This document shows, in pieces, positions 18,770-64,000 of a DNA stretch of 64,000 bases (its first letter is position 1; each line of letters opens with the position of its first letter). The position numbers were made by a program, and so were the translations under genes. Under the pieces are notes generated by a model. That model was given only the letters and a program-made list of their open reading frames with translations. It made no database searches and was not told the origin of the DNA. Origin of the DNA: Schmidtea polychroa. Taxonomy: Eukaryota. The stretch spans positions 18,788,001 through 18,852,000 of the forward strand of contig CM097885.1 in the NCBI GenBank assembly GCA_044892525.1, in the 5' to 3' direction.

Positions 18770-19254
18770 TACCAGACTGTTTAACTAATTGCTCTCTAAA
18801 TTCCCAGTTTGTTTATTCTCCCTAATTGCCGCGCTAGAGTTTTCTTCATCGCTCGGGTTCTCCATTGGATCGGACATCCCATTAGCTCGGGTTTCCCATT
18901 AGCCAATTAATTAATTAATATTTAGTGTTTTTTCATATTTGCCTGTTTTACGACCCTTTCTAAACATTTTCTAACAATTTCTTGCTCACTGTCTTCTTCA
19001 CCATTCCCTAATCTACCCTCTCCCGTTTTCCAGCTTCAATTTCGATAACATTTCACTTTACTCCACTTCCTCAGGTTTGCGAATTTTCCATTTCGTGTCT
19101 GATTGTACCTTTTATAGTTCTGTTTTTATCATATCTTTCTTTGCCATTACTTCTCTGCTTTCCTGTCATTCTTTTTCATTCAATTTCGGTTTTCTTTTTA
19201 TTCGGAACTATTCAATTTGACATAATTTAATAATTTACTTTAACAACCTCAACA
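18770..19254 (-). mobile_element. LTR fragment related to the LTRs of the 28558-44459 element
   Basis: Begins TGTTGAGGTTG on the minus strand at 19254. Contains the same 17-bp ATGGGAAACCCGAGC-type repeats (~18850-18905). Left boundary approximate. Confidence 0.6.
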
Positions 19255-19467
19255 TTCCTTTAAAAATATTTTTCGATAAAAATATTTTTAAAATTTAAAA
19301 AAATTTCATATTAATACTTTTAGAATATTTCAGCTTCCTCACAGATATTGTAATGTGAAATTTACAACCTTTACTGGGGTTGTCATCGAATTCACCTCAC
19401 TTGTCATTTTATATAATAAATAACTTAATTAATAAAACAAAAACATTTTTTCTTCGTAAACATTTTC
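19047..19467. repeat. Inverted duplicate of 24847-25206 plus 24450-24501
   Basis: Near-identical reverse-complement match read directly. Confidence 0.85.
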
Positions 19468-23000: not shown

Positions 23001-23184
23001 AAAATCATTCTTATAAATTCTGTTTTTTATATATATGTCAATCGAAAAAAATGAAATAAAGTAATAAATGGATTGTTTTTTGTTAAACTTTTTTATTTTA
23101 TCATAATTTTTGTACCTAATTTTTAAAATAGGGCGCTTTTTATAATTTTCGCCTGGGGCGTATAATTATCTCGAACCGGCGCTG
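20016..23184 (+). mobile_element. Full-length hAT (ZMYM1/TTF-finger type) with disrupted transposase
   Basis: 8-bp TSD ATACTATT (20008-20015, 23185-23192); imperfect TIR CAGGCCCGGCTC / CAGCGCCGGTTC. Transposase split into 20527-21867, 21936-22322 and 22363-23016 (FCFFC, LDCTPD, YDNGANM, TRWE, SGERSFSKL). Confidence 0.93.
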
Positions 23185-24510: not shown

Positions 24511-24846
24511 CTAGTTAATTGCAAGACGCCTAAGGCGCACGTTGACAAATCATAAAATAATTACGCTCGTAATAAATATTGTTGTAAATAATGCCTAAAA
24601 GTAAATTCAAGTTATTTTTGATTGCGTCGATTAATTTAATTTATATTTACATAGAAAAATCGAATTAAGTTTTATTTTGCAAAATAAACTTAGAAAGCGC
24701 TTTTTCAAAACTCGTTATTCGTGTAAAAATTCTATGATAGTATTAGTGAGAGAGAGAATTTTTTTATGATATTGTTAGGATCAACCAATCAGCGAGCGTT
24801 ATAGAATTAGTCAGTGAATCAGTGATGAGCGTAATTATATATTATA
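24511..24846 (-). mobile_element. Short non-autonomous Helitron-like insertion
   Basis: Interrupts one arm of the inverted duplication. Minus-strand 3' end CTAG (24511-24514) is preceded by a GCGCC-TTA-GGCGT hairpin; the other end is TA-rich. Confidence 0.55.
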
Positions 24847-24998
24847 TGACAAGTGAGGTGAATTCGATGACAACCCCAGTAAAGGTTGTAAATTTCACAT
24901 TATAATATCTATGAGGAAGCTGAAATATTCTAAAAGTATTAATATAAAATTTTTTTAAATTTTAAAAATATTTTTATCGAAAAATATTTTTAAAGGAA

Positions 24999-25405
24999 TG
25001 TTGAGGTTGTTAAAGTAAATTATTAAATTATGTCAAATTGAATAGTTCCGAATAAAAAGAAAACCGAAATTGAACGAAAAAGAATGACAGGGAAGCAGAG
25101 AAGTAATGGCAAAGAAAGATATGATAAAAACAGAACTATAAAAGGTACAATCAGACACGAAATGGAAAATTCGCAAATCTGAGGAAGCGGAATAAAGTGA
25201 AATGTTGCAATGGAGCAATGGTGTATTTGGATGACATTCTGATTTATTCGAACAGTAAAGAAAAACATTATACAATAATCAGTGATATATTAAAAGCGAT
25301 CGAGGAAGCCGGACTAAAAATTAACCAAGAAAAGTGTCAAATAATACAGAAAGAAATCAGATTCTTAGGATACATAATCAGCAAATAAGGAGTACAGACC
25401 GATCC
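24999..25405 (+). mobile_element. LTR start fused to a Gypsy reverse-transcriptase fragment (deleted element)
   Basis: TGTTGAGGTTG start at 24999. 25212-25405 reads GAMVYLDDILIYS...GLKINQEKC...FLGYIISK*GVQTDP. Confidence 0.75.
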
Positions 25406-27100: not shown

Positions 27101-28557
27101 GGCTGTAATGATAAAAGAGAGGTTAAAACGAATCCTCGTTCTCCCATTTACGTTCGGTTGCTCTAAGACGTTCAATGTACAATTACATTTAAGATCAACG
27201 CGACCCTCATCTCAACGATATCTTAGGTAGGGAAAATGGACCTAAAATGCTAATTAATTTCCCCTTTCGATTTCTTCTTTAATTTAATTTAAGTTGGCTG
27301 GAGACTTACGAAATCCAAGTTTATAAGTCTCGGTTACAGAATTGTAGTTCGTATGTTTAAAGTGGAAATCCATGAGCTTAGTTTTGATAAACTACTGGTT
27401 GATACAGTAGAAGTGAGCGTTTAAAATTTTATAAATTAAACTTTTAATAGTAGTTGTTTAAATCATGCAAAGATTTAATTTAACTATTTATACCACTCTA
27501 TATTAATTCAAATATTAAACTTTTAATAGTGGTTGTTTAAATCATTCAAAGATTTAATTTAACTATTTATTCAAATATTATTTTTCATTTTTTAGAATTC
27601 TCCATTGATAATTTTTTGGCAAAATTTATGCTACTAGGACCCACTATGGGAAGCGGATGTTGCAAATTGTATGAATTTGTATTCAACTCTTTGTGAATCC
27701 CTGACCATAGTGGTTGTAAGTGGCCCTTTCATCAGCTGGTGCTCGATAGTAAGTTAAAATTTTTATCTTTTGTAGTTGCATAATTTCAGGAATGGGTCTC
27801 TAATTCCTCGGTTTTTAGTATTTCAATCATTCACGGTATTGGAGTTATTACTGTTTAGTGGAATCCAAAGTATGGCTATACTCCCAATTCGTGGGCATTT
27901 AGGAGAAATTTCGGGGATTTATGGTGGTTTCAGGATTTTACTGATCTGTGCCACAGGAATTTAAAGTGAAAATTGGGACTCGAGTTTTTCTGAGTAGTCC
28001 CCTTCTAGAAATTCCTTAATATTACCGGTAAGATTCTTTTTGTGATTAGAATGGTTTCGTAAACAAAATTTTTGATTTTATTAAATACATTTTCGCTTTC
28101 GTTGATTCTTATTTAAGTAATTTTGTTTGACGTAAATTAATAATTATCGAATAATTTTGTTAACTCCTCATGAGAACCTATATAGTTAGTAATCACGACT
28201 TGTTATTACTCCTTACTTTTGGTCCTACTGGGTGGGTATTCCGATTCAGACCGTCACTTTCGGGGACTAGGTCCCGTGGCTTACATGCGATCTACTTCTG
28301 GGGTAACAAGGGTTAAATTCATATGGGTGAGATAGTTTTTATCGAAAGATTAGAGTTTCTACTGACATGGTCGATGGCGATTGGCTCGTGTAGGGGAGAG
28401 TATGTGCCACCTATTCGGTCAGTTAGGAGTAGTTCGTAGGGGGTAACCCTTGGTTTGCAGGGTTGTTACTAATAATAGAAGCGGTATTATTGGTCTAACT
28501 TTGCTATGAGGGAAAGAAAAAATCGATACTGTCGGTTTTGAACTTTCCTATTAATAG

Positions 28558-29452
28558 TGTTGGGGTTCAACAAGAGAGGCACAAAAATGAGGTGAAAATT
28601 GACAAAAACACCAAATTCAGAATAAAAATTTAAAGTACAAAATATTAATTAAAAATCAAAAATTTTAAAAAAATGAATATTTTCTGGGGGAAACTGGTAT
28701 GGGCGGATGCTAAATAATGAGACGAGTTCAGCTATAATAAAATAAAATCAATGGGGGTCCCTAAAAGGAATAAATTACAAAAAACAAAAATTAATTAAAA
28801 ATTAATTAACTAATGGAAAACCCGAGCTAATGGGAAACCCGAGCTATTGGAGAACCCGAGCTAATGGGAAACCCGATACAATGGAAAACCCGAGCGAATT
28901 GAGAAATCCAATTTCGGGAAGGCAATTAATTTAGCCGGAGAAATCTAATTTTGGGAAGGCAATTAATTTAGCCGGATAAAAAGTAAAAAGCGCCGTCAAA
29001 CAAATTCCATTCAATTAAATTAGATCTCCAAGAGGAAGCCCGGGGGGAAATAGGACCAAAGATAATTGGCAAAAATAAAGTCAATTATTAAACGAGTATA
29101 AAAGCAACTGGCAAGAAAACAAAATGCCAGTTGGTCGAAGAAAAGAAAATAGAAGTTTGAAGAGAGCGAAAAGGGAAATATTAAAGTTAGTAGAAATTAA
29201 ACCATTTAAAAATCGAACGTACCAGAAAGGGACATCTCCCGTTGGAAGATCTACCCCTGCGTGAGATTTGTTAATAAATTGAAAAGTGCAGACAAAACCT
29301 GATTGTATCAAGTGTGAGTAAACTAATACAAGTGTAAAAGTGTAACTGCATCAGTGTCAATAAAGATTTTGTGTTGGGTTATTTATTTATTTATTTGCAA
29401 AAGAACACAAAGGAGTCAGACCGTAGTACCGACTTACATTAAAAACCCAACA
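28558..29452 (+). repeat. 5' LTR (895 bp)
   Basis: TGTTGGGG...CCCAACA; five 17-bp repeats (28811-28895); TATAAAA at 29097; AATAAA at 29359. Confidence 0.97.
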
Positions 29453-29456
29453 TATT

Positions 29457-29474
29457 TGGTGAGCCCGACGTGAT
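29457..29474 (+). promoter_or_regulatory. Primer binding site, tRNA-Trp
   Basis: TGGTGAGCCCGACGTGAT is complementary at 17/18 positions to the animal tRNA-Trp 3' end as recalled (ATCACGTCGGGGTCACCA). Confidence 0.85.
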
Positions 29475-29843
29475 CAAAAGTCGGTGAAAATTTGTTGAAA
29501 TTGTGATAATATTTGAGTGATACCGAAGATTAAAAAGATCGGTGAAAATTTGTTGAGATTAGTAAAGTATCGGAAAAATTTGGAAAAAGATAATAATTAA
29601 ATAAATAAATATTGAAGTGAAACGTTTATTTGAAAGTGGTGAACATTTATTTGAGAATTATTAAAGTGGTGATTTTATAATTGAAGCAAAGTGGAAAAAT
29701 TTGTAACGATTGATTGTTGAAAAGTCAAAATTAAAACGAAAGGAAAATTTTGTAATTGTAACACTTTGAATTTTAGACGAGTAAAGCCTGTGTTGACACG
29801 ATCATTTTATAAATTGAGAAGCCAAACACTAATAGAGAATTTA

Positions 29844-32800
29844 ATGAGTACCCAAAGACTAACCAATAATACAAATAACAACGACGAAACACCTGTGTCC
29901 ACGGTGGGCAACGGCAAGGAAGGCAATGATTATGCGAGTTGTCAAAAACTACCTGTGGATCAGTACGGTGGAGATCCGCTGGAATTTGTCGATTTTATGG
30001 CAGATTACTATATGTATGCGACGGCCTATGGATGGAGCCAATCGATAATGGTGCAAAGATTACCGCTATACCTAAAAGGAGCAGCCAGAGAAGCGTGGCA
30101 ACAAATTGATAAAAGAATAGTAGCAAATGACTGGACCAAGTTGAAAGACGCGTTAGCCACGAAATTAATCGGAGTGGATATCAAACGGATAATGCGACAG
30201 AAATTCTATAACCGCGTACAAAAGCCAGAGGAATCGGTAAGTGAGTTTGCTTATCATTTATCAACTCTTGCAGAGAAAGCGTTCGAAGTGAAACCAGAAC
30301 AGGCCGAGATGGCAAAGCAGGTAAAAGAATTATTGCAGGATCAATTCTTGTCAGGAGTAAAGAAAGAAATTAAAAAGGCTCTATGCTATGTTGATTTTAA
30401 TGACTTTGATGAATTGATCAAAAAGGCAATGAAAATTGAGCTAAATTTAAAAAGCACACAGTCAAAATCAGAGTCGTTTGCAGTCATCTCAGGCGCAAGC
30501 GAAAGATCAGTAACCCCAATTAGAAACAATCGTTTTCAACAAACAAGTAGTCCATCACCAAAATTTAGATCCAAATTTGAGTCGAACAAGTCAACAGATA
30601 TTCAAATAGATGGAAAGGAAGGTCCCATCCAATGTAGTCATTGCCAAAGGATTGGACACCATGTTAACCAATGCTGGTTTAAAAATAGAGTACAGAGAAG
30701 CCCAATTCCGATTCAGTGTGATAATTGCCAAAGAATGGGACATGACAGCAATCAATGCTGGTTCAAAAATAATGTACAACGGAGTCCAAGGCAAATGTGG
30801 TCTGATTGGTTAAAAGGAAATGGTGCGAAAAGTTTCACTAAAGCGAACATTAATGAGCCGAGAACTAATGATAACTTACAATGCTTTAATTGCGGAAGAA
30901 AAGGGCATGTGTCACGAAATTGTTTTCCAAGGTCAAGATCAACATCAACATCACCATCACCGCAGAGAGATAAAGTAAATCTACAAGGACAAATTCAATG
31001 TCATTCATGCAGAAGTTATGGACACATGGCTAGATCATGTCCAAGAAATATGGATAAATTCCAAAGACCCATATTAAAGAAATCGATTAGGTTTCAGAGT
31101 GACAAACCGCAGATGGATAATGTAGCTTTTATTCAGCCAGATAATTTTAATGAAAGAATTGAAAACGAAGTGAGAGAAATGGGTCGACGTTTGGATCGAT
31201 TGATGTCAAAGTTTGAATCAGAAGAGGACTACAATAATCACATGATGTATGAGTCGCAAGAGGAATTGAATGAAAAAGAGTCGAAAAGGAGAGTTATAAA
31301 AGATGATTTAGAAAGTGAAAAAGCAACAATGATAATGACCAGAATCGAAAAACTAATTGGAAATAATGAAATAGAGTCGGCTAAAGTGATCAAATCGTTG
31401 AGAGAATTAAGTCAAATATCTTTGAGTATGAGAAAGATAAAAAGTGTAATTAGCTTGTGCGTTAACTACTATAATATGAATCCAAAGTATAAAGAAGAAA
31501 TTAAAGAATTAATGAAAATATTTGGAAAAGCTTTGAGAGAGAAAACAGGGTTAGATTCCATCTTGGTGGAAGTAGTAAACGAGATTGATAAAAGTGTATT
31601 ATGTTGTCGTTGTGAGGCAAATGATTGTGTAAATGATTTAAAGAATAAATTAAAAGAAAAAAAGGAAGGATGCATGATAGAGTTGAGATTTAATGAGAGA
31701 TTGTTAGAAAATGACGAATTTTTAGTAGATTGTGGATTTATACCAGGGAATACAAATGAATTAAAAATGGAAAATGTAATTACTAGTGATGAAATAATGA
31801 GTAGTAAAATAATAGACAAAAGGAATTCAAGGGAGATATTAGAGGAATTAAATGATGCGTTATATATTGGAGATGAAGATGAAATCGATGAGAAGTTACA
31901 GATTATTGAGAAATTAGAAATGGAGGACAACGATAAACTAAAAATAGTGAATATAATACGACCATATTTACATGTGAAAACCAGATATGCCAAGTTATTA
32001 AGAAGTTTATTGCAAAGATTGGGCAAGGAGCTCAGAAAGGCAAGAGTAGAGTTAAAGCCATTTTTGATAGCATTAGATTATGAGGGATATGGCAAAACGG
32101 AATATGTAGACGAGCATTGGTGTGCAAAGGTCCGAAAATTGCGGAAGAGAGCGGCTGAAACGCTGGGAAAAGATGGAATTATTATAGTAATGTACAAAGG
32201 TGAAGAACTTGACGATGATGAATACCTATATGATTGTGGGTGTGTACCACAAGAGCTGGATGAAAACGGATATTTGATCCGAGATGGACGAGTGGGATAT
32301 TTAGTGAACCATATAGTCGTAGTAAAAGGAGTGAGTTTAGAAGTAAATATTGAGTCTAACAAGCCTGACACAGAGGAACAAGATGAAAAAGTTAAGGGAA
32401 ATAAAGAAATTGATGAAATCGTTAGTGATAATGAGCAAAAAGATCCTGATAACAAAGATCAGTCCACAGAACCAGACGTACAAGGAGAGCCACTTGTACC
32501 TGAAGGCGAAATAAATGGTGAAATCAAAAATAAGAAAGTTAGAACTTTATATGAAATAAAGAAATATTTAGTGAGGCTAGAACAGGACGTCGACGAAACT
32601 AAGAAAATGTTGAAACATCTCGTTAAAGCAGTATATCCAATGTTCGACATAGAAGTAGAGGTAGATGATGAACTGAAAGAAATAGTTAAAGAGATGAAGA
32701 ATAGGCTTCCTGAAGTGATGCAGAAATTTGGCGAAGAGAATACATTTTGCGAGAGATCAGTAATCGAAAATTTGGCAAAAAATGAAATTAATAAGGAGGT

Positions 32801-34022
32801 TATAATAATAGCTTTAACTTATGTTGTTTTAGAAATTGGAACGCATACGTTCGCAAGGTCAGACAAGTTAGAAAATTTGATAGACATCGCTGCCCGGCTA
32901 GTAAACGAATATTTAATGAGCTGGGTAAACGAAAAAGGTGGTTGGAAAACACTGTGTTCATCTCTAACAGAAAAGAAAAATGAGAAGCAAGAAATGAGTC
33001 CACCCCAAAGACGAGTAAATGAAAGAGTTAAGCCAGAACTAAGAAAAACTATGATATTTCCATGGGCGATGTTTATGGTGATTACGTTTTGTGCAATAAT
33101 TACACAGACATCATCTTTAGTTGCGTACGATTGTTCCCAAACTGAAATGGGAAAAGTTTATTCGGTAGTAGATATGTCGGAATGCCCAGGTGCGTATCCG
33201 AGCAGTTTAAAAATAGAAAATGACGTAAAATATTATGTGTATCAAGAGTCTGATCTGCGAAGAACTCAAGTGAGAGAGTGTATTGTCAAACATACAACAT
33301 TTGTATTCTATTGTGGTAAATGGAGCCATACGTCACTCATAAAAATGCATGCGATACCTAGGCCAGTCGAGGTGCTTCCAGAAAACTGTCTAGCAGCATT
33401 TCAAACAGGAGAATTAAAAATAAGTCCAGAAATTCGTTTAAAGGCAAAATTGAACCATAGAATACGAGAAACAATAATTGTAAAGGGAGTTATGAAAGCA
33501 AATGGCGACTGTGAAGGTGAACCATATAAAATGAACGGTAAAATTATTCAGCAAACAGTGGTGCTAGAAGAATATCTCACGGAGTTGAGAGAGTTCGAAG
33601 GAGCTTTCGATGATGATACGGGAAAATTACAAACTCATCCATTCTGTAATATGAAACAAACACATTGTCAAACAGGGGAATCGATTCTTGTTTATAATGT
33701 AGAAACAAATAAGTGTAATTTAGCGCACTTAAAAACTATGAACTTTAAAGAGCTAGTAGGAGAACAGTTTAGAGATAAACCAGATAATTTCAATATGAAT
33801 TATAGACCAAATAATACCATTAAATCAACCCCAGTATGGACAAAGCAAATGGGAACAGTTTTAATGTCTACGTTACCAAGCATGTGCAGGTTTAATTGGA
33901 ATTTACGTTATTATGATAACGGCAAAGGTGGTAGTGTCGCAAATGTTGTCAGTACATCGAATATACGTAATATCGGGATGGTCATGGAAATTAGTTATTG
34001 GTTGTATTCCATTGTTGGCTAG
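29844..34022 (+). CDS. gag: ORF1 polyprotein: Gag (capsid, 4 CCHC knuckles) - 2x(helical + ubiquitin-like) - Bcl-2-like - signal/TM - N-terminal half of a chuvirus-type glycoprotein
   Basis: First ATG at 29844. LKGAAREAW and QKPEESVSEF capsid motifs; CX2CX4HX4C at 30633, ~30717, 30882 and 30999; WVNEKGGW at 32922; AYDC at 33123; YCGKWSH. Confidence 0.9.
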   Translation: MSTQRLTNNTNNNDETPVSTVGNGKEGNDYASCQKLPVDQYGGDPLEFVDFMADYYMYATAYGWSQSIMVQRLPLYLKGAAREAWQQIDKRIVANDWTKLKDALATKLIGVDIKRIMRQKFYNRVQKPEESVSEFAYHLSTLAEKAFEVKPEQAEMAKQVKELLQDQFLSGVKKEIKKALCYVDFNDFDELIKKAMKIELNLKSTQSKSESFAVISGASERSVTPIRNNRFQQTSSPSPKFRSKFESNKSTDIQIDGKEGPIQCSHCQRIGHHVNQCWFKNRVQRSPIPIQCDNCQRMGHDSNQCWFKNNVQRSPRQMWSDWLKGNGAKSFTKANINEPRTNDNLQCFNCGRKGHVSRNCFPRSRSTSTSPSPQRDKVNLQGQIQCHSCRSYGHMARSCPRNMDKFQRPILKKSIRFQSDKPQMDNVAFIQPDNFNERIENEVREMGRRLDRLMSKFESEEDYNNHMMYESQEELNEKESKRRVIKDDLESEKATMIMTRIEKLIGNNEIESAKVIKSLRELSQISLSMRKIKSVISLCVNYYNMNPKYKEEIKELMKIFGKALREKTGLDSILVEVVNEIDKSVLCCRCEANDCVNDLKNKLKEKKEGCMIELRFNERLLENDEFLVDCGFIPGNTNELKMENVITSDEIMSSKIIDKRNSREILEELNDALYIGDEDEIDEKLQIIEKLEMEDNDKLKIVNIIRPYLHVKTRYAKLLRSLLQRLGKELRKARVELKPFLIALDYEGYGKTEYVDEHWCAKVRKLRKRAAETLGKDGIIIVMYKGEELDDDEYLYDCGCVPQELDENGYLIRDGRVGYLVNHIVVVKGVSLEVNIESNKPDTEEQDEKVKGNKEIDEIVSDNEQKDPDNKDQSTEPDVQGEPLVPEGEINGEIKNKKVRTLYEIKKYLVRLEQDVDETKKMLKHLVKAVYPMFDIEVEVDDELKEIVKEMKNRLPEVMQKFGEENTFCERSVIENLAKNEINKEVIIIALTYVVLEIGTHTFARSDKLENLIDIAARLVNEYLMSWVNEKGGWKTLCSSLTEKKNEKQEMSPPQRRVNERVKPELRKTMIFPWAMFMVITFCAIITQTSSLVAYDCSQTEMGKVYSVVDMSECPGAYPSSLKIENDVKYYVYQESDLRRTQVRECIVKHTTFVFYCGKWSHTSLIKMHAIPRPVEVLPENCLAAFQTGELKISPEIRLKAKLNHRIRETIIVKGVMKANGDCEGEPYKMNGKIIQQTVVLEEYLTELREFEGAFDDDTGKLQTHPFCNMKQTHCQTGESILVYNVETNKCNLAHLKTMNFKELVGEQFRDKPDNFNMNYRPNNTIKSTPVWTKQMGTVLMSTLPSMCRFNWNLRYYDNGKGGSVANVVSTSNIRNIGMVMEISYWLYSIVG

Positions 34023-37000
34023 ATTCTTTATTACAGATCATCAATTTAAAGAAATGGCAAGAGTAAGGGCACAATTAAGAAATGGCCGGAAAAGTGAGGA
34101 ATCGACGTGTCAGTCGGAAGATAAAAACGACAATCATAATGATGATAACAACAACGGGGAATCGGAGCATAAATGCTTTCGAAAAAGTGCAATAAAGAGT
34201 AAAGTAGAGCCAGAGTCCAGGTTCTTGCTTGAACCAATGCCAAAATTAAGCGGGATTGATACTCTTAGTAGATGGTATACCCCGACATTTAGACCAACAG
34301 CACCAGTATATCCAAGTGAAAAACTAAAAGAGATGAAATCGGTCGATAATATCACAATAGAATTAGAGAAGATTGAACCAACGAGTGCTGAAATTGAAAG
34401 AAAGAATATGCTTGGTCTACCATGCAGCTATGCACTAATGACAACAGTAGTAGGAGGAAAACAACCTCGAATAAACATACAGTTTAACAAGAGAAAAGTG
34501 GAAGCTTTATTAGACTCAGGCTCAAGTCATACTATAGTAGCGGAAAGTTTCTTGACGTATCAGGAGAAAGCCAAAATAAAACCAACGAATCACATTATTA
34601 AATCAATGTCACATAATGCACTAAATATTGTTGGAAAATTAGAAGTTAAACTTATAATTGGAGATCAAGAAATAATTCATTGGGTATCAGTGATGAGAAA
34701 AAGTCCTGTAAAATGTCTTATTGGCATGGATGTCATGGAGCAACTACGTGGAATCTCTCTTGATCTGAGAACTGGAAAACTAATAAAAGGACAAATGGGT
34801 GAAGTAGTGCCTGAAGTAGGAGAGGTATTTCTAAACCAAACATTGGAAGTACCACCAAAAAGCGAAGTAATATACTATGCAGATGTTATGAGGGTCTCAG
34901 ATGAGGAGTACATATTTGAGCCAAATCAAAAGCTGGTTGAAAAATACGATGTGCCTATGTGTGATGAAGTAGTGAAAGTTCAAAACAAGTCAGTACCAGT
35001 TAGAATAGCGAATTATAGTGCAAGATCCGTTGAAATAAAGCCCAAAACCAAATTGGGAAAATTAACAAAAATCAAATCAGAGGAAGCTCAGAAGTTACCG
35101 AGGAATATAAAAATTTATAAAGAACCTCAGATCACAAGCAAAGATTTGACGGATTTGCAAAAACAAGAATTCAGTGCATTATTAAAGAAATATAGAAATG
35201 TATTTGCAAAACATGAGTATGATCTGGGACTCACTCAGGTGATTGAGCATGAAATACCATTACTCAACGAAACCCCAATAAAATTACGGCCGTACAGAAT
35301 ACCATACATACATCAGGAAGAAAGTGATCGGCAAATCAAAGCAATGAAAGAATTCAATATAATAAGAGATAGTTCCTCACCATTCTCATCATCAATAGTA
35401 GTAGTTAAAAAGAAGGACGGTGATTTAAGATTTTGTGTTGACTATCGAAAACTGAACCAAGTAACGAGAAAAGATACATATCCTATTCCTGTTCCACAGG
35501 AAATGTTCGATCAGATGGGGGAGGTGCAATATTTTACGGTAATAGATCTTAATAAAGGATACAATCAATTTAAAGTCAAAGAGGAAGATAGAAGGAAAAC
35601 TGCATTTTCAGATGGGAAGGGTCTATATGAGTTTAACGTGTTACCATTCGGATTAACAGGAGCACCTGCTACATTTCAGAGAGGTATGAATTTTGTTTTG
35701 CGCGATATACCACATGCATTAGTGTATATTGACGATATAATAATATTTTCGAATAGTTTTCAGGAACATTTGCAGGATGTGGAAACAGTATTCAAGCGAT
35801 TGTTAGAAGCAAACTTAAAAATAAAACCCTCCAAATGTGAATGGAGAAAATCTGAAGTAGTTTATGTGGGTCATATCATTTCGCGTCGAGGTTTGCAACC
35901 AAATCCAGAAAATGTAGAGAAAATTAAGGAATATCCTATTCCCAAGGATGTAGATCAGGTTCGACAATTTCTGGGATTAGCTAGTTATTACAGAAAGTTT
36001 ATTAAAAGTTTCTCACATGTCGCACAACCTTTGAACATGTTATTGAAAAAGCAAGCAAAATTTAAATGGACAAAAGCTCAGCAAGAAGCGTTTGATAAAC
36101 TCAAAGAAAGCTTAATAAAACAGCCGATATTAAGATGTCCGAACTTTAAAAAACCGTTTATATTAATGACAGATGCCAGTAATTTCGCATTAGGCGCGGT
36201 ATTAGGACAGCAAGTAGAATGGGAAAAAGATCATGTAATTGCTTATGCCAGCAGATCATTGAAACCTCATGAGAAAAATTATTCGACAATCGAAAAAGAA
36301 ACGTTAGCATTGGTATATGGGATAACCACTTTTCGACAATACCTAGTGGGCAGAAAATTTGTTGTCTTTACGGATCACAATCCGTTACAATGGCTAATGA
36401 AGCACAGAGATTCGGCCAGTAAATTAATTAGGTGGTCAATCGCGTTACAAGAATATGATTTCGAGATAAAGTATCGTACAGGGAAGTCAAATGCAAATGC
36501 GGATGCTATGTCAAGAATACCAGTGGAAAATAATGTTGATCAGGATGAGAAAAATTGCGAAAATACAATATTTATGGCAATAAAAACCGCAAATAATATA
36601 GAAAAATTACAAGATGATCAAGAAAATGACGAGGAATTAAATCAGTTACGCCAACATGCTGTCACAATCAAAAAGGAGAGTGACTGGAAACATATTGCCG
36701 AAGAGAACCATAAATACATTATTCATGATGGTTTGTTAAAATGTGTACAAAATGAAAATTTGTTAATTATTGTTCCGACAAAACATCGAAAATCATTACT
36801 GTTGTTGTATCACGATGGAGCATTAGGAGGGCATTTATCAGCGCGAAAAACATTATCAAGATTGAAACAGAAATATTATTGGAAAACGATGGAACAAGAT
36901 GTCAGACAATGGTGTCATACGTGTGAGATATGCCTAACAAGACGAAATACGGGACGGAAAATAAAAGTTCCGCTTAAGCCTATGCCAGTGCCCAAGGCGC

Positions 37001-39153
37001 CAATGGAAATGACAGCAATGGACATCGTTGGTCCATTGCCGGAAACAACAAATGGCAAAAAATACATTATCGTTTTTTGCGATTATCTTACTAAATGGCC
37101 AGAAGCTTATGCAATGCCAAATCAGAAAGCAGAAACAGTTGCGAAAATATTTGTGGAGAATATTATTTTTCGATACGGAGCACCAAAGAAATTACTTACA
37201 GATCAAGGAACAAATTTTCAGAGTGAATTATTTAAATCAATCACAGATTTATTTGGTATATTGAAACTTAGTACCTCACCATATCATCCACAGACAGATG
37301 GTCTAGTTGAAAGATTTAATGGGACACTAATTAATATGATATCATCCTATGTAAATAGGAAACAAAAGGATTGGGATTTATTCATTAAACCATGCTTATT
37401 TGCATACCGGAATGCAGTAAATGAAAGCACTGGAGAAACACCCTTTTATCTCATGTATCTACGACGAAACAATATGCCAGTCGATCTAGAATTTCAGTCG
37501 CCTATTTCCCAATATATGGATGTGTCAGATTATAAAATAGCTATGCATGAAAGACTACAGTTAGTATGGATCCAAGCTGGACTTAACATAAGGCATCATC
37601 AAGAAGCGTATAAAGAATGCTATGATAAACGCGCACGGGCGCATGACATTAAAATTGGAGATCTCGTGTATATAAACAAACCAGAACCAACAAAAGGCTT
37701 GTCAACGAAATTGCAACGACCGTTTAAAGGACCATATCTAGTGTGTGATACGACAGAGACTAACTTAAAATTGCGTCCACAAAACAATAAAAAGGCTGGG
37801 ACAATCATCGTTCATGTAAATAGATGCAAAAAGATAATAGAAGATGAATCACGTTATCCATTGAGATCAAAGCCAAATAAAGATGCAGGGAACCCAGTAA
37901 TTAAACAAAAGTTTACAAAAAACCCTGCTCCATTGAGTTACATCAATAAAGTTTTATTGATTACAACAGTAATGATTATCAATATAATGTCAGTAAATGC
38001 AGTGAGAGTATTCCCGTTATATGCAACTAATACAGTTGTATTATTAGACAAAGTTCATATTTATTCAACATGTACTCAAATAGTTTGGGTTTATTATGCT
38101 GGAGGAGCAGAAGAAATAGAGATAAATAATCTAATAAACTATTTTGAACCCCCAATAAAATTGAACAGCACCAAAAATATTTATGTGGCTAGACAATTAA
38201 CAATGAATTATGAATACCCTTGGTTAATTACGCAATTGGATTCGAAAAGTAATAATACAAAAATACAAAATCTTATACGCATTAATATTTGGACAAAGAG
38301 ATTACATAATCGAGTATCAATTGAACCACTGGTAAATGGAATTGACATATATTGGGAACCCCAGGAATCCCAACAAGTAAAAGCAGTTTTTCAAAATTAT
38401 GCGATAGATACATTGAATAGCAGAAAACCCTTTATAAAGTATGCAAATTTAAAATTACATCATAACTATAATATTCTGATTCACTATTATGAAAAATCTT
38501 TATACGAAAACGGAACTGAAATTGATAGTCAATGGATCAGAATACACTCTAGTCAACATATGATACGATTAGTTAATGAAACAAATCGGGTTACTTTTCA
38601 TATTTTCAATCAATTAGTGAATGTTACCCGACAAGCGGAGCCCAATCAAAAAGCTATTTTATATTATTATGGAAAAATTCAATCGATATTAAATGAAAAA
38701 AATAAATCTCAAATATTAACTTTTCGTCAACGTTCACCAATATCGACGTCAAAATTTGTGTTCATTAAAATAAAATACTATAGACGTTCTCTATTTTCAA
38801 ATCTATGGCAATTAACTTTAGTGGAAAATAAAATTGTGCAAATTCCATCTATTAACTCGCAGTATGGAAATCGAAACAAATCAAATCAGTCCAACCAAAC
38901 CCCTAGCTCTGCCAACGTAATCATCTTTTCTAGCATCAATGAGTCAATGACTAATAACGAAACCATATCGTCATTAAAAACTGACAGTGAAATTGTGTGT
39001 GTAACATTATTAATAACTACTCTCATTATAACAATCTCTCTCATTATTCTCATTATCATTGTGCTAATTGAATTTCGAACAATACCCAAACCTTCTACGA
39101 ATCGATCCGAGATTGCGAGACCTTGGATCGTTTATGAAGAAACATTTGTGTAG
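33865..39153 (+). CDS. pol: ORF2 polyprotein: glycoprotein C-terminal TM and tail - protease - RT - RNase H - integrase - FN3-like type I membrane protein
   Basis: Frame open from 33865 (track ATG at 33913). LLDSGS (D at 34513), YIDD (35725), TDAS, HHCC, D-D-E and GPY motifs; second signal peptide at 37951-38001; TM at 38992-39069. Confidence 0.95.
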   Translation, partial: CLRYQACAGLIGIYVIMITAKVVVSQMLSVHRIYVISGWSWKLVIGCIPLLARFFITDHQFKEMARVRAQLRNGRKSEESTCQSEDKNDNHNDDNNNGESEHKCFRKSAIKSKVEPESRFLLEPMPKLSGIDTLSRWYTPTFRPTAPVYPSEKLKEMKSVDNITIELEKIEPTSAEIERKNMLGLPCSYALMTTVVGGKQPRINIQFNKRKVEALLDSGSSHTIVAESFLTYQEKAKIKPTNHIIKSMSHNALNIVGKLEVKLIIGDQEIIHWVSVMRKSPVKCLIGMDVMEQLRGISLDLRTGKLIKGQMGEVVPEVGEVFLNQTLEVPPKSEVIYYADVMRVSDEEYIFEPNQKLVEKYDVPMCDEVVKVQNKSVPVRIANYSARSVEIKPKTKLGKLTKIKSEEAQKLPRNIKIYKEPQITSKDLTDLQKQEFSALLKKYRNVFAKHEYDLGLTQVIEHEIPLLNETPIKLRPYRIPYIHQEESDRQIKAMKEFNIIRDSSSPFSSSIVVVKKKDGDLRFCVDYRKLNQVTRKDTYPIPVPQEMFDQMGEVQYFTVIDLNKGYNQFKVKEEDRRKTAFSDGKGLYEFNVLPFGLTGAPATFQRGMNFVLRDIPHALVYIDDIIIFSNSFQEHLQDVETVFKRLLEANLKIKPSKCEWRKSEVVYVGHIISRRGLQPNPENVEKIKEYPIPKDVDQVRQFLGLASYYRKFIKSFSHVAQPLNMLLKKQAKFKWTKAQQEAFDKLKESLIKQPILRCPNFKKPFILMTDASNFALGAVLGQQVEWEKDHVIAYASRSLKPHEKNYSTIEKETLALVYGITTFRQYLVGRKFVVFTDHNPLQWLMKHRDSASKLIRWSIALQEYDFEIKYRTGKSNANADAMSRIPVENNVDQDEKNCENTIFMAIKTANNIEKLQDDQENDEELNQLRQHAVTIKKESDWKHIAEENHKYIIHDGLLKCVQNENLLIIVPTKHRKSLLLLYHDGALGGHLSARKTLSRLKQKYYWKTMEQDVRQWCHTCEICLTRRNTGRKIKVPLKPMPVPKAPMEMTAMDIVGPLPETTNGKKYIIVFCDYLTKWPEAYAMPNQKAETVAKIFVENIIFRYGAPKKLLTDQGTNFQSELFKSITDLFGILKLSTSPYHPQTDGLVERFNGTLINMISSYVNRKQKDWDLFIKPCLFAYRNAVNESTGETPFYLMYLRRNNMPVDLEFQSPISQYMDVSDYKIAMHERLQLVWIQAGLNIRHHQEAYKECYDKRARAHDIKIGDLVYINKPEPTKGLSTKLQRPFKGPYLVCDTTETNLKLRPQNNKKAGTIIVHVNRCKKIIEDESRYPLRSKPNKDAGNPVIKQKFTKNPAPLSYINKVLLITTVMIINIMSVNAVRVFPLYATNTVVLLDKVHIYSTCTQIVWVYYAGGAEEIEINNLINYFEPPIKLNSTKNIYVARQLTMNYEYPWLITQLDSKSNNTKIQNLIRINIWTKRLHNRVSIEPLVNGIDIYWEPQESQQVKAVFQNYAIDTLNSRKPFIKYANLKLHHNYNILIHYYEKSLYENGTEIDSQWIRIHSSQHMIRLVNETNRVTFHIFNQLVNVTRQAEPNQKAILYYYGKIQSILNEKNKSQILTFRQRSPISTSKFVFIKIKYYRRSLFSNLWQLTLVENKIVQIPSINSQYGNRNKSNQSNQTPSSANVIIFSSINESMTNNETISSLKTDSEIVCVTLLITTLIITISLIILIIIVLIEFRTIPKPSTNRSEIARPWIVYEETFV

Positions 39154-39585
39154 TAAGACATAAATACTTTGCATGCAAAAATTGATAAAGTAGTAGTAGT
39201 AATATAGTATAAATATTTTATGGATATTATTAATATTTTTTTTCTTTATGGATATGATCAATATTTCATTTTATTTTACTTGTGAATCTGCACTTTTCAA
39301 TGTCAACGGAAAGAATCAATTTGATTGGTTAGCGCTGTGTTAAGGGGGAGAAAAAAACGGGGTTAAGGGAATTTTCATAAGGGTATTAAAAGAGGGTAAA
39401 ATCCATTAAACTCCATTAATTTTCAAAAAAATATATATATCAACAATTAACTAAACGGTAATTATTATTATTATTATTATTTATACAGCTAGTAGCTGGG
39501 ACAGTATCCTTCGGATACTTCATCTCAGCCCTAGTTTTAAAAGTAAAGTAAATTCAAACGTTAAATTATAACTATTTTAGCAAAA

Positions 39586-41046
39586 ATGGAACAAGTACAA
39601 TGGACAAGATCCACCTACGACAGTTACTTCAAGATGCAGAAAAATCATGCCAGCCAACAATTATACGAAATCAATGAAAATTTACAAATTCCAAATTATT
39701 TGAGGATAGATGACAGAAGAATGAAGATACGAATGTTTACAATAAGGAGAAATTCAGAATTGAAATTGACAGATGAAATTGAGTTGTCTCGGAAGGAAGA
39801 ATATCACATACACGTGATCAGAGGTACAGTGGAAGTGCTGAAGAACGATAATACAATATGGTGGCAACTTCGAAAATTCACATCGTGGAAGCTGCAGAAG
39901 GACTCCATGTGGAGAACACTACGAGCAGCGAATGAGGAGACAACGTTGGTGGTGGAAATCAGAACTGAGAATGAAGCGGATGAGGTACCACAGATGCATC
40001 TAATTGAAGGAGAAGACCCAATGTTATTGAAAATTTCAAAGGAAATGTTGAAAAAGAAAATGTCGTTTCTCAGAAAAGAAATGGATCTAGAAGAAATCCG
40101 CAGTAGAATATTATTCATTGATGCTGAATATGGCACATCAGAGCAAGGGAAAATGGTCCCTTTAGCAATAGCAATTATGAATTATTATGGGAAAGTAGTA
40201 AAAGATGTATACCTCACTCCAAGAGGAAAAATCCGACATTTTAATTCAAGGATCCATGGAATTACAGAAGTGGCCAGCAGGAACCAATGTGATCAATATG
40301 TGGCAATGAAAGAGATACAACGCTTGACAGTAGGCAAAATATTGATCGGCCATGATTTGCATGCAGAATTACAATACTTGGGGATATGGATTGAACAATT
40401 GTACGGCATTCGAGATCTAGCAGCAGCACCAATACTTCAGAACATGGGAGTAACCATAAGGGGAGAATGGTTCAAACTACAAACAGTGGTGAAAGAAATA
40501 TGTGGAGAACAGACTCAGATGAGTATTCATTCGGCTCTCGAGGACGTGAAAAGTATACGCAAGGTATACCAGAAAGTGGAAAGTCAATGGATTGATGACA
40601 TACCGATGCCCAAAAATCAACCGTCAAAGCGATATTCGTGGGATGAATATAAGAAGCTTCGGGAAATTGAATCAACATCAACTGCAATACCAGAAAAACT
40701 AACGCAAATTCCAATTGAAGATGTAATGGAATCTGAAGAAATTGATTTAACATTCGAGGAGAATGTGACGATGGATAGTGAAAATCCATTGATTCAACTG
40801 AAGTGGGCCAATGAATCATTCTTAGAAATTGCGGAAGGTGTCGCATTAATGGTAAGCATACCGATGATAAGGATACATCCAACACTTGAATATGGTCCAA
40901 TGCCAGAATGTAGAAAATCCAAAAAGAGAAAAACAACTTCGAACATTGATGTCGGAGACACTGTCAATGGTGTAGTATATGAACGCGAAGAAACAATAAT
41001 ACGATATCGGCATGAAACGAAACGATTAGAAATAAAGATGGATTAA
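39586..41046 (+). CDS. ORF3: cupin-like N-terminus + DEDDh 3'-5' exonuclease (REX4/ISG20-like)
   Basis: ExoI FIDAEY (40120), HGIT, ExoII-like LIGHDLHAEL, ExoIII HSALED; intact 486 aa. Confidence 0.85.
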   Translation: MEQVQWTRSTYDSYFKMQKNHASQQLYEINENLQIPNYLRIDDRRMKIRMFTIRRNSELKLTDEIELSRKEEYHIHVIRGTVEVLKNDNTIWWQLRKFTSWKLQKDSMWRTLRAANEETTLVVEIRTENEADEVPQMHLIEGEDPMLLKISKEMLKKKMSFLRKEMDLEEIRSRILFIDAEYGTSEQGKMVPLAIAIMNYYGKVVKDVYLTPRGKIRHFNSRIHGITEVASRNQCDQYVAMKEIQRLTVGKILIGHDLHAELQYLGIWIEQLYGIRDLAAAPILQNMGVTIRGEWFKLQTVVKEICGEQTQMSIHSALEDVKSIRKVYQKVESQWIDDIPMPKNQPSKRYSWDEYKKLREIESTSTAIPEKLTQIPIEDVMESEEIDLTFEENVTMDSENPLIQLKWANESFLEIAEGVALMVSIPMIRIHPTLEYGPMPECRKSKKRKTTSNIDVGDTVNGVVYEREETIIRYRHETKRLEIKMD

Positions 41047-41659
41047 TTTTTATATATTGTATTTATAAAATAAATAATTGTGAACTCGATTTTGTCTCAT
41101 GTATTTATTGGCAGCGCATCAGTTAGACCCCAAAATAAGAATAAATAAGTAAATAATTGAGAGTAAATAAATAATCAAATAAATAAATAAAACTATTATT
41201 GTGTATAACAACAAACACATTTCCAATTGTCGGGGTTTGGCTACCCTGGACAACAATTGGAAATGAGTGGTTGTAAAGAGCCACATAAACAGGTTGCGAC
41301 AAATCATAACAATTTATAATTTATTAGACAAAAAGGAATTGATAAATATTTTCAAATCATAATAGAAATTTTCGATATTTATAATTCATTTAAACAAATT
41401 TAAAATATTAATTCATAAAAATAATATATATATATTGCCAAAGAAAATATTGAATTCACTGACTCAGCCACTTGTAGGCGAAAAGATAACAAACATTTTT
41501 ACCAAAAAAAAATTATAACATAATAACAGTAAGAGACCTTGAACAAATACTTGGAAATGTTGTTTGAAAGCAAGTGATAAAATAAATTTATTCAATATAA
41601 AATCACACTTTCCATTTCATTTTATTTAAATTGTTATAGATAATTATGGAATATCTTAC

Positions 41660-42033
41660 CTGAAATATCACATAAAACATTAAGATCGCGCAGCCTGAAT
41701 TAACTCGATATTTACAAATAATTAATGCACTTCCCATTAATTGACAAATAATATTTATTAGTAGAAAAAATTCAATAATCAAAGAATTCATTTTCCCATA
41801 AACTGGAAATAAAATCTATTTGTTCACTCCACGGGGTAATTAATTGATATCCATCTTCAATAAAGGTCGACACTAAACAAACTCGAGCAATATGAGGTAA
41901 GAATCGACGTGTCTTTCTAATTACCTAGCATACAACTGAAAATTGAAAAGAAAATATACAAATTTACTATATCAGCATAATTCTCTAAATTTGTCAAACA
42001 ATCCTTTTTATTATTTCGAATAGAATCAACCAT
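41660..42033 (-). CDS. SURF4: SURF4/Erv29-like gene (N-terminal part), antisense inside the LTR element; exons 42033-41968 and 41924-41660; one +1 frameshift near 41795
   Basis: Spliced read MVDSIRNNKKDCLTNLENYADI|VIRKTRRFLPHIARVCLVSTFIEDGYQLITPWSEQIDFISSLW-MNSLIIEFFLLINIICQLMGSALII, versus SURF4 as recalled ([45 protein letters not shown]). 43-nt GT-AG intron. Confidence 0.85.
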
Positions 42034-43584
42034 TAAGAAATTTACAACGTAGTAATTTAAAATTAAAATTAGTCTAATTATTCAAGTTTATAAACTCGAT
42101 AAGTGATTGTATTTTCTTTTCTGTAAAAATATAATTTTCTGTTATTACATTTTAATAAAAAAATAAAATAAATGGCATACCGATTTCTTTACACTTTGTT
42201 CATTTTCCAAGAACTCTCAGAAAATAGTTTGGCATTTTATCTGCAACAATATCAAAGCTCATTATATAGTTTTATAACGAGCCTAAGTGAGCAAGCGAAC
42301 GGTTCGTGGTCTTATCTGTTGGCGATATGTGTCGAGTCCAGTGTCTTTCTAAACTGAAATTAGCCGTCTCTAAAATCGCTTGAAGTTCTGCAATAAAAGT
42401 CAATGACTAGTTCCAATTTGATGGCTGTCGTGTTAAAATGAAATGACTTAATCGCCTATCACACACATACACGAGAGAAGAGGGAAAGTGACACACCTCC
42501 TAGTATGAAAGAAGTCAAAACAACAAAACAAATTAAATTACCCTTGAATTAGTCCAAATTGTAGATGTGTAACAAATTCAATCGGATGATTGGTGGATTT
42601 AATTATCATTTTCCTTTTGGAATTTTCCTATCTCCCGTCAAAAGTGCAAACCAATTTCTTAAATAATTTCGGTTTTAGATCTGAAATTGAAAAACAAATT
42701 GAATTACCCTCAACTGCAATTGAATTAGTTGATTGGATCAAAAAGAGAAAAACCGCAACTACAATTGAATTAGTTAAATAAATTTTTTTCAACAAATTCC
42801 AAAAACGTGATATATTTTGTTTTAATGGCATGCTAATATTTCATGAAGGAGGCAGTGAATAACAAAACAAAAATGTCAAATTATAATTCAGAATGATTTT
42901 CTTAGAGATTATTGGAAAATATAAAATAATAAAATATTGTTTTGGTTGACATTTAAGAAACAGAATTGTCAAAAGCAGCTGAATAAATATGAAAAATAAA
43001 TTTTTTTCAACAAATTCCACCATGTTCAACTAAGTTGAATAACAAAATAATTTTTTTTAAATTATTATTAATATTATTATTATATCAAACTGATTTTCTC
43101 ATTAATTTCTTTTGTTTCTCTTTTGGAAAAAAATTCTGTGAAATAATAGTTTAAAATAAATAGCTAAGCAACTATCTGTGATGAACCCAACTTGATATCA
43201 TATTGTATACACTGCACAGTGCATTTCATCATGTACAAACAAATATTATGATGCCCGATACACAACTGTCACCAATATTACAATTATTATCATCATCATT
43301 ATTAATTATTATTAGTATTGTTATCGGTAGTATTATTATCGTCATTATTATTGTTATTAGTATTAACATTATTATTTATATTAAGTAGTGTGAGGATGAT
43401 GGGGGGGGGGGGGGGAGTCGAATAAGGAAATTTCAAAATAAAATATCTCAGATTTAAAATCATTGGCAAAGGCAATAGCTAAAATAGGTAGATAGCAATC
43501 CATTTTTATTATTATTATTATTATTGTTATTACTGTATGGTAAATTTGACTTATTATATGCAGATTCGAGGTCGAATCTAAATT

Positions 43585-43595
43585 AAAGGGGGAGA
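43585..43595 (+). promoter_or_regulatory. Polypurine tract
   Basis: AAAGGGGGAGA, 2 nt upstream of the 3' LTR. Confidence 0.9.
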
Positions 43596-43597
43596 TA

Positions 43598-44459
43598 TGT
43601 TGGGGTTCAACAAGAGAGGCACAAAAATGAGGTGAAAATTGACAAAAACACCAAATTCAGAATAAAAATTTAAAGTACAAAATATTAATTAAAAATCAAA
43701 AATTTTAAAAAAATGAATATTTTCTGGGGGAAACTGGTATGGGCGGATGCTAAATAATGAGACGAGTTCAGCTATAATAAAATAAAATCAATGGGGGGTC
43801 CCTAAAAGGAATAAATTACAAAAAACAAAAATTAATTAAAAATTAATTAACTAATGGAAAACCCGAGCTAATGGGAAACCCGATACAATGGAAAACCCGA
43901 GCGAATTGAGAAATCCAATTTCGGGAAGGCAATTAATTTAGCCGGAGAAATCTAATTTTGGGAAGGCAATTAATTTAGCCGGATAAAAAGTAAAAAGCGC
44001 CGTCAAACAAATTCCATTCAATTAAATTAGATCTCCAAGAGGAAGCCCGGGGGGAAATAGGACCAAAGATAATTGGCAAAAATAAAGTCAATTATTAAAC
44101 GAGTATAAAAGCAACTGGCAAGAAAACAAAATGCCAGTTGGTCGAAGAAAAGAAAATAGAAGTTTGAAGAGAGCGAAAAGGGAAATATTAAAGTTAGTAG
44201 AAATTAAACCATTTAAAAATCGAACGTACCAGAAAGGGACATCTCCCGTTGGAAGATCTACCCCTGCGTGAGATTTGTTAATAAATTGAAAAGTGCAGAC
44301 AAAACCTGATTGTATCAAGTGTGAGTAAACTAATACAAGTGTAAAAGTGTAACTGCATCAGTGTCAATAAAGATTTTGTGTTGGGTTATTTATTTATTTA
44401 TTTGCAAAAGAACACAAAGGAGTCAGACCGTAGTACCGACTTACATTGAAAACCCAACA
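43598..44459 (+). repeat. 3' LTR (862 bp)
   Basis: Matches the 5' LTR apart from two fewer 17-bp repeats, one extra G and one A/G substitution that I could see. Confidence 0.97.
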
Positions 44460-44487
44460 ATAGTAACGTTTTATTGATAATCATGTT

Positions 44488-44845
44488 ACTAATAATAATA
44501 ATAATAATAATGATAATAATAATAATAATGATAATAATAATAATAATAATAAAATAATAATAATAAAATAATACTAAAATAATAGTATTAGTAATAATAA
44601 TAATAATGGTAATGATAATAATAATGATAATAACAATAATACTAATAACAATAGTACTATTAATAATAACTATAATGATAATTATGGTAATAGTAATGGT
44701 AATAATAATGATAATGCTAATGATAATGCTGGGAAAAATAATAGTATTAATAATAATAATAATAATGATAATAATAGTAATAATAGTAGTAATATGATAA
44801 TAACCATAATAATAATTATAGCAATAGTAATGGTAACAATAATAG
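44488..44845. repeat. Degenerate (AAT)n low-complexity tract
   Basis: aataataat/gataat/agtaat runs. Confidence 0.9.
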
Positions 44846-63895: not shown

Positions 63896-64000
63896 AATAA
63901 ATTATAACTCAATTAAATATGATTGTCAAAAATGACAAATATATTTAAACAAACTTTTATTTTATGTAATTCAAATGTAAATAAAATTTATTATAAATAT

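Follow-up and report, generated by a model that had tools for sequence, protein, structure and literature searches.

We analyzed a 64,000-nucleotide stretch of the Schmidtea polychroa genome (assembly GCA_044892525.1, contig CM097885.1, positions 18,788,001 to 18,852,000 of the forward strand), referred to here as the window. It contains a 15.9 kb long terminal repeat (LTR) element that is, with high probability, a recently inserted, defective copy of a compact Burro-like GAG-ENV-POL errantivirus of the Ty3/gypsy group, long copies of which measure ~16.8 kb. Two long plus-strand open reading frames (ORFs), ORF1 (29721-34022) and ORF2 (33865-39153), and a third frame (39565-41046) make up its coding part, and the ORF2 frame runs without a stop from the C-terminal region of the envelope gene (env) into the protease. 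The features of the element, in window positions, are the following:

28554-28557, plus strand: left target-site duplication of 4 nt, repeated at 44460-44463
28558-29452, plus strand: 5' LTR, TG...CA, with short tandem arrays of 17 and 37 nt
29457-29475, plus strand: primer-binding site, beginning with TGG, 4 nt past the 5' LTR
29844-31055, plus strand: Gag from its first ATG, with a Retrotrans_gag capsid-type domain (PF03732, E 2.4e-6) and CCHC zinc knuckles (PF00098, E 9e-9)
31308-31793, plus strand: unit 1, a predicted four-helix part followed by a predicted ubiquitin-fold domain (PF00240, E 0.03; structural model)
31827-32327, plus strand: unit 2, a second helical and ubiquitin-fold unit, duplicate of unit 1 (structural model, fold search)
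32568-32981, plus strand: predicted Bcl-2-fold domain (profile, fold search)
33048-33104, plus strand: hydrophobic segment 1 ahead of env (hydropathy), a putative internal signal sequence
33117-33878, plus strand: N-terminal part of a chuvirus/gB-type Env ectodomain, ORF1 frame (PF24664, E 1.9e-26)
33877-33878, plus strand: deletion junction with 2-nt microhomology, private to the window copy (copy comparison)
33880-34017, plus strand: C-terminal membrane region of Env, ORF2 frame, with a strong segment (33880-33936) and a weak segment (33961-34017)
34459-37290, plus strand: protease, reverse transcriptase (RT; YIDD at 35725), RNase H and integrase (Pfam)
37933-39153, plus strand: post-integrase membrane protein, ORF2 frame, with a leader (37933-38025), a strong transmembrane (TM) segment (39013-39069) and a short tail
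39586-41046, plus strand: separate ORF3 with an ISG20/ISG20L2-like DEDDh exonuclease domain at ~40102-40602 (ISG20L2, E 6e-11)
41275-43300, plus strand: variable 3' non-coding region, of a type common to a subset of copies only
43580-43597, plus strand: purine-rich tract ahead of the 3' LTR
43598-44459, plus strand: 3' LTR, TG...CA

The TG...CA ends of the LTRs, the target-site duplication, the primer-binding site and the purine-rich tract are as expected of a Ty3/gypsy (Metaviridae) element, and in the second window frame Pfam matches run from protease through RT and RNase H to integrase, the order typical of Ty3/gypsy. The primer-binding site, which we take to correspond to tRNA-Trp, has a 16-nt core with 511 occurrences in the genome, against none for the reversed control. 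The 5' and 3' LTRs of the window copy align with 860 matches, 1 mismatch and 2 indels, and the insertion is very young; the LTR pairs of six sibling copies differ at 0-6 positions over 230-906 aligned bases. Between protease and RT, where a dUTPase-like region is described for Burro-like elements (PMC6431247), a spacer is present, with no Pfam match for 34750-35100. The Pfam search of the window frames gave no match to BIR, MATH/TRAF or ankyrin domains. Within the window family, copies differ in their 3' non-coding region, of which there are several types without relation to each other; the type present in the window was found at the 40 places scored in one search and in none of the eight long-form loci compared.

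An env deletion private to the window copy

The original prediction described, from the letters alone, a chuvirus-like class III env between gag and pol that had been split by an internal deletion. All of its quoted motifs were located, in the ORF1 frame (M of the leader at 33051, LVAYDC at 33117, DMSEC at 33171, VRECIVKHTTFVFYCGKWSH at 33270 and GDCEG at 33504) and in the +1 frame (ACAGLIG at 33880 and GWSWKLV at 33976). The stretch 33051-33872 matches positions 5-215 of the 653 positions of Pfam PF24664 (Monjiviricetes_fusion) at the E-value listed above, so that the motifs are not a product of chance, and in a sibling copy env is unbroken and matches the same family at E 1.9e-86 (best stretch 264-632), in agreement with the predicted identity and position of env. 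At the family level, env lying between gag and pol and its chuvirus/gB-type homology are the marks of a GAG-ENV-POL gB-type errantivirus. By hydropathy only, the Env ectodomain is flanked by a signal peptide and a TM segment.

The deletion was surveyed with a 1,401-nt query spanning the junction, for which 40 places of 1,087 candidates were scored. Only the window matched this query as a single piece. At the other 39 places the left 879 nt matched in 39 and the right part in 38, mostly 875 nt further on, with a left-to-right spacing of 844-875 as calculated from the listed coordinates. An exact measurement of the additional sequence succeeded for 13 of 19 loci, anchors having failed in the other six, and gave 875 nt in 11 loci, 874 nt in one and 870 nt in one. 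The junction itself occurs once in the genome, compared with 205 occurrences for the adjacent env sequence, and carries a 2-nt microhomology at 33877-33878. Among the 19 sibling loci, the region from the env leader into the protease is open in 14, contains a stop in four and was not measurable in one; an env without large truncation, as expected of an intact errantivirus, is thus found in 14 of the 19 and is missing from the window copy. The longer in-frame version anticipated by the original prediction, put there at ~1 kb, therefore exists, and an internal deletion is the cause of the +1 frame change, as had been proposed. The loss is somewhat smaller than predicted (~292 codons against ~300-350 residues). 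Its description as the Cys-rich half was wrong, given that the missing part holds five of the usual 14 ectodomain cysteines (12 of the 14 open copies).

We attribute the frame change to a deletion that only this copy carries, with 2 nt of microhomology at the join. The overlap of ~150 nt between ORF1 and ORF2 resembles gag-pol frameshift sites and could be read as a programmed +1 frameshift, or the junction as a truncation fixed across the family. Both had been named in the original prediction as readings of an outcome that would overturn it, a junction common to all copies; the junction was found once in the genome and the siblings are longer and in frame, so that the copy survey refutes both possibilities and leaves them with practically no probability. 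Internal losses in retroelements can also arise through reverse transcription of a spliced RNA, in which case the missing part would be an intron. This origin is ruled out, with a probability scarcely above nil, by the lack of splice-type ends (GT-AG or CT-AC in none of the 13 measurable loci, in any register) and by a join that is out of frame and unique. The combination of a unique junction with longer, in-frame siblings thus rejects both programmed frameshifting and splicing.

A junction that occurs once in the genome is also what an assembly or consensus error confined to the window copy would produce. In keeping with such an error, none of the 15 joints displayed, out of 74 in four public contig runs, has the size of that in the window, a result of limited weight because contigs drop rare variants; the long form is covered by these runs together with the stretch that the window copy lacks, and one contig bridges its env-TM side. 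Against it, private deletions and stops are common in other copies of the window family, and we regard an error as quite improbable. The loss of the env middle shifts the frame and cuts pol off from gag in this copy. The most that it can make is Gag up to a shortened Env, and Pol would have to be supplied by its siblings. The copy in the window is a dead end and represents, in broken form, a layout already in print.

The polyprotein of sibling copies and its accessory domains

Of ten copies, each read in two overlapping parts, three are open in a single frame from ahead of gag through the final membrane segment, and the remaining seven carry stops, frameshifts or deletions at differing places. 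A domain search with the Gag-Env insert placed 21 of 150 scored places (hand count) in frames of 3,435-3,437 codons. The family encodes one polyprotein of ~3,400 residues plus a separate exonuclease ORF. The single Gag-Env-Pol-membrane protein ORF of ~3500 residues foreseen in the original prediction was thus borne out as to the frame, its length being somewhat lower (3,437 codons from stop to stop, ~3,395 from the first ATG). The order of parts is Gag, two helical and ubiquitin-fold units, the Bcl-2 fold, a hydrophobic leader, class III Env, TM, protease-RT-RNase H-integrase, a second hydrophobic leader, a beta-rich ectodomain and a last TM. Neither the ubiquitin-fold and Bcl-2-fold domains nor the exonuclease ORF had been named in the original prediction.

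The Gag-Env insert was modeled on an eight-row alignment, shallower for leaving out five database relatives, and consists of two four-helix/ubiquitin-fold copies, an acidic linker and the Bcl-2-fold domain. Units 1 and 2 are predicted with confidence (predicted local distance difference test, pLDDT, about 74-92), and their ubiquitin-fold matches (Z about 10, root-mean-square deviation (rmsd) 1.4, 76 aligned; for unit 2, Z 9.6, 72 aligned, residues 252-344) rank after the Bcl-2 matches. No family was found for the four-helix part of the units, which the fold search barely probed. Outside this genome, 11 database proteins carry the helical and ubiquitin-fold unit, several of them joined to Gag. 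The database proteins P0006, P0009 and P0012 combine Gag with the unit; P0006 ends in a Bcl-2-like stretch, and P0012 (2,296 aa) carries env with four aspartyl-protease domains after it and lacks RT.

The Bcl-2-fold domain is modeled with modest confidence (pLDDT about 45-70). Its top 20 structural matches all belong to the Bcl-2 family (best Z 13.5, rmsd 3.4, 134 aligned), with the caveat that Z values of this size also arise by chance between helical bundles. A five-sequence element profile finds Bcl-xL at E 6e-5, its first match being a designed helical repeat, and the Atlas lead is to BID/Bcl2L15 clusters. A BH2-like W-x-x-x-x-GGW is retained. The sequence profile agrees with the fold matches, and together they point to the helical fold of the Bcl-2 family. 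A wider search for a Bcl-2-like domain in long proteins scored 7,999 candidates and returned only the query member P0006, a negative of little evidential weight.

Bcl-2-family genes are also found in the genome outside the polyprotein. Some are dispersed and multicopy, one type with an apparent intron and dozens of listed matches, and another an intronless type of 152 codons lying in repeats 99.5% identical over 3.3 kb; these dispersed genes are possibly cargo of another mobile element. Seven near-identical canonical genes with NWGR lie within 0.9 Mb (G000:C4, 89.9-90.8 Mb) and are probably segmental or tandem duplications.

Downstream of integrase, and in the same frame as pol, an all-beta region of 330 residues lies between a hydrophobic leader and a strong TM. 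The ectodomain had no Pfam or PDB sequence match, and its structural leads were to FN3 (Atlas, Foldseek E 4.5e-7, Z about 8), which suggests, on the strength of a predicted model, an FN3-like domain. ORF3 matches ISG20L2 (at the E-value listed above), ISG20 (E 6e-8) and RNase_T (E 5e-4), and its exonuclease motifs are retained in eight of nine related loci checked and altered in a distant family.

In three further families in the genome (A2, B and C) the parts follow each other as in the window family (A), likewise within a single frame; the RT identities of the three are 92%, 86% and 53%. Family B reaches 3,334 codons in 8 of 68 scored rows, with no exonuclease ORF in the stretches seen; family C has about 3,050 codons, one ubiquitin-fold unit and an exonuclease ORF with altered motifs. 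One family A2 copy (L075) shows an in-frame internal loss through which the protease runs directly into the post-integrase part. The same part order recurs in a giant Burro-like element (G000:C1, about 258-285 kb) with a pairwise RT identity of 51.5%. By eye, its Gag-Env insert has ubiquitin-like and Bcl-2-like stretches, and its integrase is followed by ankyrin repeats and then by a hydrophobic leader, a short ectodomain and a TM. No exonuclease ORF was found in the 19 kb of this element examined. A RING+MATH (TRAF-like) ORF and coiled-coil ORFs lie downstream of it.

Four hydrophobic segments recur at matching positions across the four compact families (A, A2, B and C); in the giant element, the env frame of which is broken, three of them were seen. 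For the post-integrase ectodomain no sequence similarity was detectable between families A/B and C, so that position and hydropathy are the basis for treating it as homologous across families. In comparison with family A2, the ratio of nonsynonymous to synonymous substitution rates (dN/dS) is 0.06 for the N-terminal part of Env, similar to integrase, 0.12 for the Env TM, 0.20 for the Bcl-2 fold, 0.19-0.23 for the ubiquitin-fold units and 0.29 for the post-integrase ectodomain, all rough values with dS near saturation; against families B and C, synonymous sites are saturated for most domains. As judged by these ratios, each part of the polyprotein is under amino-acid constraint.

The family has also given rise to a pol-less derivative, 5,328 nt shorter than the long copies, in which an in-frame join connects window positions 33845 and 38290 at a 9-nt repeat. 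All of pol and the greater part of env are lost, and ~265 Env residues are fused with the latter half of the post-integrase ectodomain, followed by its TM. It is present in eight of ten fetched loci (L163-L168, L170 and L171), a count that is not a frequency because these loci were chosen for short spacing between gag and the 3' region, and at 21 places in the genome, on the four large contigs. Two of the eight fetched copies have unbroken frames of 1,660-1,661 codons. A ninth locus (L169) has another in-frame Env-to-ectodomain join, from 33455 to 38157, at a 10-nt repeat. In trees of both flanks, which set seven join copies against 12 and 10 other copies, the join copies failed to form a group (approximately unbiased test, p-AU 0.05 and 6e-6); the trees left out join copy L170 and involve near-identical, recombining copies. 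The ungrouped join copies fit either repeated origin or recombination.

Membrane topology and genomic surroundings

The original prediction expected the intact polyprotein to cross the endoplasmic reticulum (ER) membrane several times, and four hydrophobic segments were indeed found by hydropathy; from these and from general knowledge of signal sequences we infer an ER topology. Translation would begin in the cytosol, the first leader would open ER translocation of Env, the Env TM would bring the chain back to the cytosol for Pol, and the second leader and last TM would display the FN3-like part in the ER lumen. In this way the chain would pass through the ER membrane four times, leaving Gag and Pol on the cytosolic side and Env and the FN3-like tail in the lumen. 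The parts would then be released by signal peptidase and by the protease of the element, and the env leader, ~25 residues after the Bcl-2 fold, may stay as a C-terminal tail anchor on the Bcl-2-fold domain. Gag and Pol tethered at the membrane beside Env could give rise to enveloped particles with two surface proteins, and the Bcl-2, ubiquitin-fold and exonuclease parts might act on host cell-death or defence pathways. Both pol-less joins link predicted luminal parts, which would be compatible with this topology; the support that they lend is weak, since in-frame joins arise one time in three.

Several points weigh against this proposal. Expression, processing, topology and particles are all predictions from sequence, and none of the sequencing runs listed for the element is recorded as RNA, a result that says nothing either way about expression. 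The glycosylation-sequon test gave no support for a luminal Env (2 sequons against 3.7 expected), and sequons are enriched only in the post-integrase part of family A (10 against 5.1 expected). The Env TM is followed, in families A and B, by another segment of weak hydrophobicity; should this one span the membrane, the simple four-pass model would not hold. No mechanism altering a 1:1 Gag:Pol ratio from the single ORF was found. The FN3 assignment depends on a model of low confidence (pLDDT 46). For the Bcl-2-fold domain, Pfam PF00452 matches at E 2.5e-4, below the cut-off, and NWGR, the BH1 motif of the Bcl-2 family, is absent in all five aligned element sequences, while being seen in host-type Bcl-2 genes of the genome.

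A different function for these parts must also be weighed. Env, the Bcl-2 fold and the FN3-like tail might have ceased to serve spread from cell to cell, and persist for assembly inside the cell or solely because a stop would disconnect pol. Where all parts share one ORF, selection acts against every stop ahead of pol irrespective of what a domain contributes, and the presence of a pol-less, Env-truncated derivative at 21 places implies that copying does not require a complete Env in cis. Against this reading, the amino-acid constraint goes beyond an open frame, the dN/dS of env being similar to that of integrase, and the post-integrase part is constrained in spite of lying downstream of pol. 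On this evidence we consider the alternative unlikely, if far from negligible.

Carried to its full extent, the enveloped-particle proposal would make these elements enveloped viruses in which one four-pass polyprotein yields a two-protein surface, composed of a class III fusogen and an FN3-like type I attachment protein or receptor decoy. The env leader would double as the tail anchor of an ER-bound Bcl-2-fold protein, the ISG20-like nuclease would act on host RNA defence, and the pol-less form would be a defective-interfering or restriction-like derivative with a chimeric surface protein. As a whole, this composite is speculative, and the chances are against it.

Elsewhere in the window, remnants of hAT-type DNA transposases (DUF659, DUF4371 and hAT dimerisation domain) lie at 8904-10292, 13248-14909 and 20527-23016, the last of these flanked by 369-nt inverted repeats at 19047-19415 and 24838-25206. 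A long TAA microsatellite (44490-44844) starts 30 nt past the 3' LTR and is followed by a plus-strand ORF of 426 codons (47594-48874) without a Pfam match, and an RRM-domain ORF (E 1.7e-16) lies on the minus strand at 63128-63901.

Comparison with known systems

The planarian element Burro, described in 2019 as an in-frame Gag-Ubl-BCL2-Env-Pol (PMC6431247), belongs with GYPSM1 to giant gypsy-like elements for which the same paper cites Grohme et al. 2018 and Jurka 2007. The likeness of the window family to Burro/GYPSM1 comprises a single polyprotein with Gag, a ubiquitin/SUMO-like part, a BCL2-like part, a mononegavirus-type Env in frame, protease and RT-RNase H-integrase (PMC6431247). The two differ in size, the window family measuring ~16.8 kb and ~3,400 residues against >30 kb and ~4,900-5,100 residues in Burro. 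Burro1 proper carries BIR, MATH/TRAF and ankyrin domains, none of which was found in the window family, whereas the latter has two helical and ubiquitin-fold units and an extra ISG20-like exonuclease ORF. By size and domains, the window family is not Burro1 proper; the comparison covers Burro1. The anti-apoptotic domain of Burro1 has been reported to aid planarian stem cells (as cited in PMC13465017), which makes the Bcl-2-fold domain of the window family a reasonable next candidate.

GAG-ENV-POL errantiviruses with a gB-type env were reported in 2026 from Nematoda, Bryozoa and Platyhelminthes, including six from Schmidtea mediterranea (PMC13524379) for which no LTR or primer-binding site is listed. 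Smed_errantivirus_1 (Platyhelminthes C1a HSV/gB-type) has the same Env type in the same position, and its env is ~79% identical to that of the window family (199/251 residues, hand count). Over the same 251-residue segment, family B is ~98% identical to Smed_errantivirus_2 (246/251, hand count), and the window family differs from all six listed Smed env segments. The identities of the two families point to a planarian host of Schmidtea type. The words Bcl, ubiquitin, exonuclease, polyprotein and fused do not occur in the main text of PMC13524379. An env in frame between gag and pol is, then, an already published layout, in planarian Burro (PMC6431247) as in flatworm errantiviruses (PMC13524379), and the novelty implied by the original prediction does not hold. 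For the post-integrase membrane protein, the exonuclease ORF and the pol-less derivative no published description was found in the parts of the literature available, a soft negative given that figures, Repbase or supplements may hold them.

The window family provides a compact, young and high-copy version of Burro, with >200 near-identical copies and LTR pairs with 0-6 mismatches, in a host that is a model animal with routine RNA interference and stem-cell assays. Across families 50% apart in RT, the core of the layout is retained as a helical and ubiquitin-fold unit, a Bcl-2 fold, Env, Pol and a post-integrase membrane protein. The threading and balance of a single-ORF Gag-Env-Pol, and the second membrane protein as a candidate fusogen partner, can now be tested.

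Two more distant systems share individual parts of this arrangement. Mosquito BEL/Pao elements have also captured a chuvirus-type glycoprotein (PMC7642597), but they are BEL/Pao rather than Ty3/gypsy elements and reside in another host group. The gypsy-like Juno and Vesta elements of bdelloid rotifers (PMC5408684) also encode a DEDD exonuclease as a separate third ORF; theirs is an RNase D-like DEDDy enzyme that replaces env, whereas the exonuclease domain of the window family is of the ISG20/REX4-like DEDDh type and occurs together with env.

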